From contig OX638340.1 in NCBI GenBank assembly GCA_951812955.1, positions 1,312,001-1,376,000 of the forward strand: a DNA stretch of 64,000 bases, written 5' to 3'. Under the pieces are notes generated by a model. It was not told the DNA's origin, ran no database searches, and saw only the letters and a program-made list of their open reading frames with translations. This DNA is from an uncultured Gemmatimonadota bacterium (GTDB lineage: Bacteria > JAAXHH01). Shown here piece after piece: positions 43,063 through 45,652 of the stretch; the stretch's first letter is position 1; the number at the start of each line of letters is the position of its first letter. The position numbers and the translations under genes are program-made.

Positions 43063-45652
43063 CGAGATAGCCCTCGCCGGGTGCTCGCCGGCACCACTTG
43101 CAAACTATTTGAAAGCACTCGGTGTACTTCGGCTGATTGAAAGTCCAACGAGCAGTGTGAGCGGAATCGCCGCTGACCCGGAAGTGCGTGGCTGGTGGGA
43201 AAATGAATGCTTCCATTTGCACACTCGCTTAGACTACGGGGCACTGACGCGTTTCTTCCTCCGAGATTACGTCCCCAGCCCTGTTATAGCACCGTGGAAC
43301 GGTGGAAGCGGATTCTACCCCGGCGACAATAAAGACGGATTTGAGCCATTTACAGGGACCGATGTCGCGATGCGATTCGCCCTGCTTGCCGGTGCGGTCC
43401 AAACGGCGTCTCGGGAGATCAACAGATGGGGCTTTATCCCACAACTGAAGATAATCATCGGAAGCCAGACTCGACTGGCCAATTGCTGGAATGTTTCCAA
43501 GAACGTGTTGAGATTCAGGTATCAAGTTGCTGCCGAAGATACCATCACGGGCAAAATCAGCATTGGCGAAGATGCGCTGAGGCCGAACCGCGCCAAGATC
43601 ACGGATAAATCTGGAAAAGAGAAGATTACGTTGGGTGACAGTGGTAAAGGGGAGGCACTGAAAGTAACTGACAAGAAGATCACTTCTAGACCGAAAAATA
43701 GCGAAATCTACACCACTGGTGAGATCATCCAAGTGGAAGTAATGTTCAGTAAAGACGTAAAAGTAGCCGCTCGCCCAGAAGATACGAACAAGACCAGTTT
43801 CGTAGCGGGACTTCGCGGCTGTCTAGCTGACGTCGCCCTTGACTGGCTCGACGCGGCACTGGCTCTTTCGGGCGACCGCCTCAGTTTTCCTCAACTTTTA
43901 GGAACAGGAGGAAACGACGGACGCCTCGACTTCACGAATAACTTCATGCAACGTCTTGCGTCCACATTTGACGTTGCTACCGGCAACCCAATGGAGAACA
44001 CGGCGCGGTTGCTACGGAACTCCCTTTTTAACAATGGGACATGGGGCTTAGGCAACGAAGCCATCGGACAGTTTGCCCCAGGTTCTGCCGGGGGTCCCAA
44101 CGGGAGTACCGGCTTCGAGGCAGGTTCAAACGTCAATCCGTGGGATTTCATTCTCGCACTCGAAGGAACCATGATGTTCGCGGGAGCTGCGACTCGCCGC
44201 CATCAAGGCTCGCCAGATTTGAACGCGAGTTTCCCCTTTACTGTGCGACCAACCGGTGCGGGGTGGGGTGGGGTCGGGGATTCCGATGAAAACAACGCAC
44301 GGGCGGAATTTTGGGCTCCTCTGTGGGACCGGCCCGCGGGCCCTCGTGAACTCGAAGGTTTGCTGAAAGAAGGCCGCGCCGTGTTGAATGGTAAAACGGC
44401 ACGAGATGGTTTGGATTTTGCACGGGCTGCCGCAAGTCTCGGGACTAGCCGTGGGATATGTGCTTTCGCGCGATATGGCTTCGTCATGCGGTCGGGCAAG
44501 GCATATCTTGCTACTCCTCTAGGTACTTTGGGTGTCGCGTCGAATCCTTCAGAAGAAATAGAATTGATAAGTGATCTCGACGCCGGCGGATGGCTGAATC
44601 GGGTTCGCCAACTGGCCCGCGAGAAAGGAGCGCCAGTCCGTGCCCGAAGGGCGGTAAAACAACTCGAAGACGCGCTTTTTGACATGAGCCATGCCCATGT
44701 CAGACCAAGTACGGTACAAGCTGCGCTCCGTGCATTGGGCAGTTTGGTCGGATGGCTCGCAGACAGCCGAGAGACTTTCGAAAGAATCCCACCTCCACCG
44801 CGCTTGTCCTACAAGTGGGTAAGCCTGGCCGACGATGGAACGCCGGAGTACCGGGTCGCGGCCGCGCTAGCGAGCCTGGGATGGCGGCCTAGTCAAGATC
44901 CGCTACGGGAAAGCTCTGCCAGAGAATCCGAATCGTCTGTAGGCGAAGCAAGAAACGCCGACACCGTGATCAACGCCGATGCAACAAAGAAACGGATCGC
45001 GCTGGCCGCGCATTTCGCCCCGCTAGACGCTGAAGCAATACCCAAAAAACGGCGCAAATGGGATGCTCGGAAGAAAAACCGGGTGGTATGGAGTGAGGCC
45101 GATCTTGAGTCCAATTTGATCTCGGTACTCCAACGTAGGCTCATCGATGAAACCATCGCCGCGCCAATGGACGCGGCGACACCGGCAAGACTGATGGATA
45201 TTGCAGCGTTTCTAAACAGGGACTTCGATGATGCGCATTGTGCGCTGTTGCTCGCAGGGTTGGTCTGGGCAGAGTCGGCGTTGTGGTTTTCTTCTGAATA
45301 CCACCGCCATCCGGTTGTGCCTTTTGCTTATGCCGCACTGAAACCACTTTTTGCGCCCGATAAGGTGCTCAAGGAAAAGGGACTGATATCACCAGACTGC
45401 GTCCTTCCAATTCCTCAAGGCCTGATCTCGCGCTTGCGAAGCGGGCGAGTCGAAGAAGCTATGCGTATGGCATTTGCCCGCGCTCGCGCCTCGGGCATTG
45501 CTTGTCCGTTCGCTGGCCGCGTGATTTCACAAAAAGCACAATTCGGCCGTCGCCTCGCCGCTGCACTGCTTATTCCTATAGACGACTATGGTCTAAGAAC
45601 CCTTATGGAACGGGCTTATCCCACAGAAAAGGAGAACGAAGATGTCGCTTGA
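43046..45652 (+). CDS. csx17: type I-G large subunit Csx17 (Cas8g/Cas8u2)
   Basis: The N-terminus [22 protein letters not shown], then [10 protein letters not shown] and [17 protein letters not shown], which are Csx17 signatures as I recall them. The start (43046 or 43052) overlaps the cas3 end. Confidence 0.85.

Follow-up and report, generated by a model that had tools for sequence, protein, structure and literature searches.

A type I-G CRISPR-Cas operon lies within the 64,000-nucleotide stretch of an uncultured Gemmatimonadota genome analyzed here (the window), and its large-subunit gene encodes 868 amino acids, against 718 positions in the family profile TIGR04113 and 720 amino acids in the solved protein. 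What are the additional residues, where did they come from, and what would they do in Cascade? To our knowledge, type I-G is the least understood of the type I systems. All coordinates below are those of the window and, unless stated otherwise, refer to its forward strand. The ORF at 43046–45652 is identified by homology as Cas8g1/Csx17, the type I-G large subunit: it matches TIGR04113 at E 4.7e-183 with 610.7 bits (cut-off 150) over profile positions 1 to 716 of 718, and Csx17 of the solved type I-G Cascade (8b2x_M) matches it at E 3.4e-161 in three collinear stretches that break exactly at the extra segment. The gene sits in a complete type I-G operon that begins with cas3g (40582–43062; TIGR02621, E 2.5e-224), which overlaps the start of cas8g by 17 nt. 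Downstream follow cas7g/csb1 (45642–46598; TIGR02570 and PF09617), csb2, a Cas5-Cas6 fusion (46606–48240; TIGR02165, E 2.4e-50), a cas4g-cas1g fusion (48445–50157; NF049935, E 2.3e-230), an ORF containing cas2 (49968–50456; PF09827, E 1.2e-17), and then a CRISPR array (50666–52996) with 32 copies of a 36-nt repeat and spacers of 36 to 40 nt. The Cas2 domain occupies residues 71 to 136 of its ORF, and the true cas2 start is probably internal. A Gemmatimonadota MAG carries a locus 90% identical to this one. Type I-G Csx17 forms a complex with Cas7, Csb2, and crRNA in which it keeps Cas3 in place (PMC9638904), a putative role also for the protein encoded here, for which the intact operon and purifying selection speak.

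In an alignment of 27 sequences, residues 130 to 240 (43433–43765; 111 residues, FIPQLK...DVKV, in frame) stand opposite a gap in the nearest insert-free relatives, for example P0008–P0019, which are about 750 amino acids long; relatives lacking the segment are about 75% identical over the rest of Cas8g. The initial annotation had called an in-frame insertion of about 120 residues at 43435–43795, upstream of LDWLDAA and between two conserved regions of Csx17. The insertion itself, its region, its placement between those regions, and its absence from close relatives were borne out. Its exact limits were not: the start was set two bases after the first base of the insert, one base out of phase, and the 3′ end about 30 nt too far, over residues that align with residues present in all homologs. 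Among the closest aligned sequences (the query and 117 protein clusters), 12 of 118 carry the insert, as does one of 80 loci from species-representative genomes; it is an acquired, lineage-restricted extra domain, as had been proposed, rather than a normal part of the family, which numbers roughly 5800 Cas8g homologs. No earlier description of insertions in Cas8g/Csx17 was found in the literature.

The composition of the segment is as unusual as the initial annotation had claimed. Lysine accounts for 12.6% of its residues, isoleucine for 11.7%, and threonine for 8.1%, against 2.9%, 3.3%, and 4.2% in the rest of the protein, and its GC content is 0.450 against 0.568 in the remaining cas8g, the lowest value in the operon and one reached by only 0.2% of segments of the same length in the 64-kb window. 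Such a minimum might suggest DNA that arrived recently from a foreign or mobile source, such as an IS remnant or an intein, or else an error of assembly. However, third codon positions have practically the same GC content in the insert and in the rest of the gene (GC3 0.541 and 0.549), so only codon positions 1 and 2 carry the break, and the drop in GC follows from the K/I/T-rich amino-acid composition rather than from recent acquisition. The segment keeps the reading frame, purifying selection acts on it, at least 12 independent sequences, drawn from different assemblies, carry it at this site, and it matches no mobile-element or intein family in Pfam or NCBIfam. An antisense ORF at 43229–43732 likewise has no family match, and we took it to be spurious. 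Around the insert, neither target-site duplications nor inverted or direct repeats were detected beyond chance matches of 10 to 13 nt. A recent foreign or mobile source is thus extremely improbable, and we rejected a mobile element, an intein, or recent transfer on the grounds of GC3, absent flanking repeats, and absent family matches.

AlphaFold2 predicts the insert as eight strands with no helix, in keeping with the beta-strand-like character noted from the sequence. Its pLDDT is 85 to 89 in the full-length model, where it is predicted with higher confidence than any other part of the N-terminal lobe, and the domain modeled alone reaches a pLDDT of 86.9 and a pTM of 0.81. The model sets the insert between two helices of the N-terminal lobe of Cas8g, at their tip; one of these, predicted at residues 109 to 128, precedes it. 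Judging by sequence, the topology would be that of a beta-sandwich. Neither solved nor viral structures gave a significant match to the insert model, and a sequence-profile search of the PDB with the insert/repeat alignment gave only chance flagellin matches (E 1.1). No Pfam or NCBIfam family matched the insert alone at E ≤ 10 in either the native or the permuted order described below, and it stays under the gathering threshold of the bacterial Ig-like family Big_12 (PF19078).

The source of the domain emerged from a profile of the insert, which matches 6006 proteins at E ≤ 1e-3. The top matches are giant tandem-repeat proteins of 0.7 to 8 kaa with 10 to 40 copies (up to 41 matched stretches in one protein); the best single repeat scores E 9e-25 over profile positions 3 to 111, and the aligned repeats are 30 to 42% identical to the query insert. 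Several of these proteins have signal-peptide-like N-termini, and in P0217, P0195, and P0236 the array starts at the ITS motif directly after one. Pfam scans of the giant proteins returned only summed weak Ig-like matches, and those to Big_12 run in native order; P0195 alone reaches the Big_12 cut-off (28.2 bits against 27), without any single significant stretch, and an NCBIfam scan of four giant repeat proteins gave no match. The segment in Cas8g is therefore one copy of an all-beta repeat module of about 120 residues that normally occurs as 10 to 40 tandem copies in giant acidic proteins, and the family of this module is uncurated and only distantly related to Big_12. In Cas8g, the module is present as a single copy within a Cascade subunit rather than as a tandem array in a large secreted or surface protein, and six-frame translation revealed no further copy in the window.

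The strands of the Cas8g copy do not follow the native order, in which ITS... comes first and ...HKVD last. In 150 giant proteins, 89 arrays start and 90 end at profile positions 71 to 90, with a mode at 81 to 90 (66 starts and 75 ends). The Cas8g copies span profile positions 1 to 122 (the query copy begins at 1 to 3), whereas native arrays start and end at about 82 to 85, so that the two registers are offset by some 40 residues. The first part of the insert (residues 130–196; 43433–43633) corresponds, by alignment and array-phase statistics, to the second part of the native unit (PQLxLxIG...GISI..AL..N..I.D..G), and its last part (residues 205–240; 43658–43765) corresponds by alignment to the first (V..V.ITS.P..G.Y..GE.I.V.V.FS..V.V). 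The Cas8g insert is thus a circular permutant of the native repeat unit: it starts mid-unit, ends with the first strands of the unit, and has a short linker of variable length where neighboring repeats would meet. In the query this linker is GDSGKGEA (residues 197–204; 43634–43657), which connects the C-terminal part of the native unit to its N-terminal part, varies in length by lineage, and has the lowest pLDDT within the domain (67). P0068 and P0069 carry 25 to 41 extra linker residues and retain the native end, LSLG.H.V...HKV. We infer that a tandem-repeat gene would have donated a fragment one repeat long, cut out of register. In the captured register, the ends of this fragment are adjacent in the native protein (V.V.G-.PQL), and the domain could thus fold while plugged into a loop; insertion into a loop requires neighboring termini, which the permutation would have provided.

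Once in place, the domain was kept. Omega between the window and locus L001 is 0.255 in the insert and 0.17 to 0.28 elsewhere, and the insert is under purifying selection. It is present on backbones only 47 to 50% identical, which, together with this selection, argues that it is old. Its distribution on the backbone tree is patchy, and several of the ERZ250... assemblies contain insert-bearing as well as insert-free alleles. P0003, which has the insert, and P0011, which lacks it, are 90 to 100% identical over residues 1 to 95 and 85 to 96% identical after residue 241, but only 53% identical over residues 96 to 129, the stretch with the helix that precedes the insert (43331–43432). This helix co-varies with the presence or absence of the insert; in P0003 and P0004, both of which have the insert, it is 91% identical. 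A second pair, L083, which has the insert, and L084, which lacks it, shares 95.3% identity in Cas3 and 97.2% in Cas7, and the DNA just outside the divergent block is 92 to 98% identical per 60-nt window. The divergent block is strongest at cas8g residues 85 to 243, weaker from about residue 25, and ends at a sharp 3′ breakpoint near residue 243; the two loci differ essentially only within residues 45 to 243 of Cas8g. Taken together, the alignments show that the insert and its preceding helix (residues about 96–240) behave as a cassette moved by homologous recombination between near-identical type I-G systems, the helix being its 5′ part.

Would such a cassette serve CRISPR function at all? The site may simply be an insertion-tolerant loop, and the insert a stably folding beta-module shuffled by recombination without a CRISPR role. 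Consistent with this, the insert is rare in the family, systems whose Cas3 and Cas7 are 95 to 97% identical may have it or lack it, the partner subunits show no compensatory changes, and unrelated helical expansions occupy the same site in Vicinamibacterales, an alphaproteobacterium, and Gemmataceae. A mere passenger is harder to reconcile with an omega (0.26) like that of the remaining gene, with retention of the domain on backbones diverged to 47 to 50% identity, with a co-adapted adjoining helix that travels with it, and with the directional shift to conserved lysines described below. The argument from selection is weakened by the fact that a folded domain must avoid misfolding, so that even a passenger should come under a degree of purifying selection. 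On balance, we regard neutrality as somewhat doubtful. The same patchiness, with a discrete cassette recombining repeatedly among systems that circulate together, at a site that is a hot spot for differing insertions across lineages, would also fit an arms race: the appendage would mask or change a surface of Cas8g against which phage anti-CRISPRs are directed, and fluctuating selection would keep the cassette polymorphic. Cas8 surfaces are often anti-CRISPR targets in type I-F and I-E systems, but we know of no anti-CRISPR for type I-G; omega gives no sign of positive selection within the insert, and the lysine enrichment would be left unexplained. This scenario is, in our estimate, unlikely.

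Lysine makes up 7 to 12% of the Cas8g inserts, whose net charges range from −2 to +7, against 1.7% of 1309 native repeats, whose mean net charge is −6.4; net charge is non-basic in three of the ten inserts scored (P0004, −1; P0033, −2; P0068, −1). Twelve columns have derived K/R in the Cas8g inserts, two of them invariant; K or R occupies the derived columns in 64 to 100% of the Cas8g inserts and in 1 to 9% of the 1309 native repeats. A column analysis located a derived basic loop, DKSGKEK (residues 187–193; 43604–43624), where native repeats have the uncharged D-A-A-G-N-A-A, and its K188 is invariant in all 11 Cas8g inserts. The insert has thus turned from acidic to lysine-rich and gained conserved lysines, although the 11 insert sequences are mutually related and this conservation partly reflects shared ancestry. 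The lysine enrichment could alternatively reflect how an extracellular domain generally adapts to life in the cytoplasm.

Based on these patterns, we propose that the insert would be a dispensable, surface-exposed accessory appendage on Cas8g whose conserved lysines (K188, K191, K211, K217, K239, and others) would touch a polyanion. In this proposal the polyanion would most likely be the double-stranded DNA of the target, or else the displaced strand, close to the PAM-proximal end of Cascade, and the contact would tune DNA binding or R-loop stability. The initial annotation had suggested that the extra domain could change target recognition. The sole structure of a type I-G Cascade shows Cas8g at about 8 Å and without target DNA, and how type I-G reads its PAM is itself unresolved (PMC9638904). 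A DNA-contacting role of this kind is possible, and we advance it tentatively. A broader version, in which a lysine-recharged, permuted repeat module acts as an exchangeable domain that changes the engagement of target DNA (PAM range or R-loop locking) or anti-CRISPR binding, and which recombination switches on or off, strikes us as rather doubtful.

Protein partners were considered as well. As the initial annotation had suggested in proposing that the domain could recruit another factor, a beta-domain at this position might recruit or position Cas3g or another protein: Ig-like beta-modules often mediate protein-protein contacts, and Cas3 is held in the type I-G complex via Cas8g (PMC9638904). 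In comparisons of eight loci with and six loci without the insert, each gene coming from only a subset of them, no residue of Cas3, Cas7, or Csb2 co-varied with the insert and no column separated the two groups, which argues against an obligatory new contact with any of the three. Columns 467, 476, and 486 of Csb2 appeared to co-vary in a small sample; the signal vanished once more loci were added. Among the gene lists returned, no extra gene was consistently linked to insert-bearing loci, and the Cas3 proteins of L083 and L084 are close to identical, as given above, whether or not the insert is there. We therefore do not think that the insert makes a new contact with Cas3, Cas7, or Csb2, and a docking platform is quite improbable.

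For the reading as a whole, a permuted repeat copy carried on a recombining cassette and serving as a basic accessory appendage, we estimate a probability of roughly 40%. The source of the domain, its permuted order, and its behavior as a recombination cassette go beyond what the initial annotation had described. The insert-bearing Cas8g is a new form within a known protein family, and the donor repeat family, with at least 6006 proteins, has no above-threshold coverage in Pfam or NCBIfam. The locus offers a clean example of a tandem-repeat gene donating an insertable domain: one repeat length cut out of register yields a permutant whose ends would meet. Near-isogenic pairs such as L083/L084, together with independent basic expansions at the same site in other phyla, point to a surface whose role can be tested directly by cassette swapping. 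For genome editing with compact type I-G systems, the insert marks a loop tolerant of a domain of about 110 residues.

Compared with Csx17 of Thioalkalivibrio sulfidiphilus (PDB 8b2x, PMC9638904), the protein is homologous over its full length outside the insert, and the operon order matches, with the array following the genes. As in type I-G Csx17, an N-terminal mixed alpha/beta lobe and a helical Cas11-like C-terminal lobe are both predicted. Unlike 8b2x, it has an extra 111-residue all-beta domain between the equivalents of 8b2x residues about 100 and 122, and the helix next to it represents a different allele. This insertion hot spot of Cas8g, flanked by the conserved APWNGG motif and the LDWLDAA region, is also expanded in Vicinamibacterales (L009, L011, L028, and L062), the alphaproteobacterial L016, and the Gemmataceae locus L072; these expansions are net basic as well (+5 to +8), but they are K/R/E-rich stretches of 40 to 90 residues, probably helical, and unrelated in sequence to the beta-module. 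The repeats of the giant proteins, which weakly resemble Big_12, Big_7, Big_10, and DUF4625, are homologous to the insert over the whole unit and share with it the motifs PQLxLxIG, F.Y.V...D, GISI, and ITS.P..G.Y..GE.I.V.V.F. In contrast to them, the Cas8g copy is single, permuted, lysine-rich instead of acidic, and housed in a cytoplasmic instead of a secreted protein, and in the clade of the query it lacks about 15 residues (LxLxxHAIxxxxxHKVDG). In permutation by duplication, an out-of-register excerpt of tandem repeats gives a circular permutant. The Cas8g insert follows the same order, the second part of repeat n and then the first part of repeat n+1, but here the product is an insertion in an unrelated host protein rather than a free-standing protein, and the inter-repeat linker was trimmed afterwards.

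The window holds a complete type I-G CRISPR-Cas locus, comprising cas3g (40582-43062), cas8g/csx17 (43046-45652, 868 aa), cas7g (45642-46598), csb2 (46606-48240), a cas4-cas1 fusion (48445-50157), cas2 (within 49968-50456) and, directly 3′ of cas2, a CRISPR array at 50666-52996 with 32 copies of the 36-nt repeat ATTTCCGGGGCTGCGCAGCCCCGGCCTCATTGAAGC and spacers of 36-40 nt. The cas8g product matches the TIGR04113 equivalog model (718 positions) end to end with 610.7 bits and shows every testable defining feature of Cas8g1/Csx17, of which it is a member. It aligns with the solved Thioalkalivibrio Csx17 (PDB 8b2x_M, 720 aa; E = 3.4e-161) in three collinear blocks, and the gap between blocks 1 and 2 falls at an extra segment of 111 aa, residues 130-240 (FIPQLK...DVKV, nt 43433-43765).

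Searching 5.8 billion proteins yielded 5800 homologs, of which 27 were aligned. In this alignment, the insert stands opposite a clean gap in the nearest relatives (P0008-P0019 and others), which run to about 750 aa and share about 75% identity with the query outside the insert. The initial annotation had proposed such an in-frame insertion; its coordinates of 43435-43795 began within two bases of the true 5′ end and overran the 3′ end by about 30 nt. Among the 118 closest sequences in an alignment of the query and 117 protein clusters, 12 are carriers; among 80 species-representative genome loci just one is, a Gemmatimonadota metagenome-assembled genome (MAG) that is 90% identical. The low GC and K/T/I-rich composition noted earlier were also borne out: GC is 0.450 in the insert versus 0.568 in the remaining gene, the lowest in the operon and within the lowest 0.2% of same-length windows across the 64 kb, and K reaches 12.6% (2.9% elsewhere) and I 11.7% (3.3%). 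The drop is limited to codon positions 1 and 2 and results from the amino acid composition. Third-position GC (0.541 versus 0.549 elsewhere) matches that of the host gene, so the drop is no mark of recently imported DNA, and neither flanking repeats nor mobile-element signatures were present in the sequence around the insert or in family scans of it. The insert is real and non-artefactual, and an origin as recent foreign DNA or artefact, contradicted by these data, is vanishingly improbable.

AlphaFold2 models agree with the beta-strand-like character first read from the sequence. The full-length prediction from the 27-sequence alignment is mediocre overall (pLDDT 67), with residues 130-170 and 210-240 at pLDDT 85-89 in an all-beta region between predicted helices 109-128 and 246-259. 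Modeled alone with 51 aligned sequences, the domain has eight strands (pLDDT 86.9, pTM 0.81), its linker being least confident. A second variable stretch, at residues 614-656 (44885-45013; pLDDT <50, S/E/R-rich), differs widely in length among homologs and separates the N-terminal lobe from a helical Cas11-like C-terminal lobe; it may act as the hinge, or an internal start site that yields a small subunit, as described in other type I systems, may follow it. No internal-start small-subunit product was seen in the Tsu I-G study (PMC9638904).

The insert lies below every Pfam threshold. A profile of the 11 Cas8g inserts was run against 1.84 billion representative proteins, matching 6006 at E ≤ 1e-3, of which 854 reach E ≤ 1e-30. 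The best matches are proteins of 0.7-8 kaa with 6-41 matched stretches apiece, whose single repeats score up to 80 bits (domain E down to 9e-25). The consensus of the repeat is GxPQLxLxIGxxTRxAxY..G..LxFxYxVxAxDxDxDGISIxAxALxLNGGTIxDxxGxxAxL...HKVD..., continuing APxVxxxxITSxPxxGxTYxxGExIxVxVxFxExVxV. The giant proteins have no NCBIfam match and only summed weak Ig-like Pfam matches (Big_12, Big_7, Big_10, DUF4625), P0195 barely reaching the Big_12 sequence cut-off (28.2 bits versus 27). This makes the donor family abundant yet uncurated, and it probably represents a distant beta-sandwich of Ig-like type. With 6006 proteins, no NCBIfam model, and only sub-threshold Pfam similarity, it is a candidate new domain family. 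Some of the members sampled (P0121-P0270) exceed 7000 aa, with up to 41 repeats.

Relative to these repeats, the insert is circularly permuted. Of the arrays in 150 giant proteins, 66 begin at profile positions 81-90 (89 within 71-90) with "...APxVxxxxITS", a start that directly follows a signal-peptide-like N terminus in P0217, P0195, and P0236; 75 end at positions 81-90, at "...HKVD". The weak Big_12 matches follow the same native order. Cas8g copies span profile positions 1-3 to 122. Their first two-thirds match the later part of one native unit, and their last third matches the first strands of the next, with a short linker (GDSGKGEA in the query) at the junction. The distant carriers P0068 and P0069 have 25-41 additional residues in this linker, which there retains the native end motif "LSLG.H.V...HKV"; the 111-aa form is therefore a trimmed derivative. 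The two end residues of the insert lie about three residues apart in the native chain (V.V.G-.PQL). The permuted register would thereby let the module fold while plugged into a loop, since the native register would put its ends at opposite poles of the domain.

In a neighbor-joining tree based on the 718 columns outside the insert, carriers and non-carriers are interspersed, a pattern explained by regional differences in identity. The carrier P0003 and the non-carrier P0011 are 90-100% identical over residues 1-95 and 85-96% after residue 241 but just 53% over the helix at 96-129, where the carriers P0003 and P0004 share 91%. At the DNA level, a carrier locus (L083) and a non-carrier locus (L084) differ mainly in one cas8g block, strongest over residues 85-243, weaker from about residue 25, and with a sharp 3′ breakpoint immediately after the insert. 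The 60-nt windows just outside are 92-98% identical; elsewhere in cas3-cas8g-cas7, identity drops below 80% only over the opening 60 nt of cas3 and some 120 nt around cas8g residues 783-822, and the Cas3 and Cas7 proteins are 95.3% and 97.2% identical. The unit of inheritance is therefore a helix plus beta-domain cassette, a presence/absence allele moved between type I-G systems by homologous recombination. These type I-G systems occur in MAGs assigned to different phyla (Gemmatimonadota, Latescibacterota, and Terriglobia). Comparison of the window with L001, the 90%-identical locus, gives the insert an omega of 0.255, against 0.17-0.28 elsewhere in the gene; the insert is kept by purifying selection. 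Its origin, permutation, cassette behavior, and selection were computed directly and carry high confidence.

Several further features were also recorded. In P0020 (764 aa), which has a truncated N terminus and a frameshifted C terminus, the cassette sits in a backbone that is 97-98% identical to that of the non-carrier P0008; the sequence reflects either a further recombination event or a chimeric assembly. In the window, cas8g overlaps cas3g by 17 nt (43046-43062) and cas7g by 11 nt (45642-45652); both overlaps recur in related loci L081-L084, consistent with translational coupling. The region upstream of cas3 encodes a Fic-domain protein at 36570-38087, a PhyH dioxygenase at 38141-38947, and, at 39962-40246, a nucleotidyltransferase that is probably the antitoxin in a HepT-type pair. 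In L087 (1617-3290), whose Cas8g is just 60% identical, cas3 is preceded by the same PhyH/NTP_transf_2/HepT-like set, which suggests that divergent cas cassettes occupy a conserved chromosomal site. L087, the carrier locus of P0033, looks degraded (3867-11138), with a Cas3 of just 714 aa and no DEAD-domain match and csb2 split into ORFs of 189 and 280 aa. An IS66-family transposase occupies the expected place of cas7 right after cas8g in L085 (8661-10079), and a type III-A module (Csm1/Csm2/RAMP) adjoins the insert-carrying operon in L086 (9456-11581). Finally, a 1383-aa ORF at 53341-57492 (+) combines Big_2 and Big_1 Ig-like domains with a long leucine-rich-repeat region showing 72-nt DNA periodicity (55232-55852) and a weak Peptidase_M66 match; the Cas8g insert module is absent from it.

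Charge sets the insert apart. Native repeats (n = 1309) are acidic (mean net charge -6.4, median pI 4.45, K 1.7%), whereas Cas8g inserts have 7-12% K and net charges of -2 to +7, the query reaching +7 with a pI of 9.7. At twelve profile columns, 64-100% of inserts have K/R versus ≤11% of native repeats; among them, the loop DKSGKEK (residues 187-193) replaces native D-A-A-G-N-A-A, and K188 and K239 are invariant, even in P0068 and P0069. The same site (equivalent to residues 96-245) is an insertion hot spot: Cas8g lineages from Vicinamibacterales (L009, L011, L028, L062), Alphaproteobacteria (L016), and Gemmataceae (L072) bear unrelated, apparently helical K/R/E-rich expansions of 40-90 aa, also net basic (+5 to +8). 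The derived basic features hint at a bearing on function. We tentatively favor a dispensable basic appendage exposed on the surface of the Cas8g N-terminal lobe, a lobe that contacts Cas7.1 and Cas7.2 (PMC9638904); through contacts with the displaced strand or target DNA, the appendage might modulate binding or the stability of R-loops. This reading is itself doubtful. Of its rivals, a neutral passenger in a permissive loop is unlikely and an allele for anti-CRISPR evasion improbable. A role as docking platform for a protein such as Cas3 is quite improbable, weakened by the lack of carrier-discriminating columns in Cas3, Cas7, and Csb2 across eight carrier and six non-carrier loci, each gene coming from some loci only. 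A smaller sample had yielded three candidates in Csb2, columns that were lost once more loci were added. Since a well-supported identity is combined with a weakly supported function, we place the overall explanation at roughly 40%.

Full-text literature searches found no published description of the Cas8g insert, and the type I-G structure paper notes only variation in Cas8g size among I-G variants (PMC9638904). The evolutionary history of the insert is unusually well resolved, and systems such as L083 and L084 are natural near-isogenic controls for it. The insert is homologous in sequence to the giant-protein repeats but shares neither their linear order nor their tandem arrangement nor their secreted, acidic context; co-opted and permuted, it is better seen as a derivative of that family than as a member.
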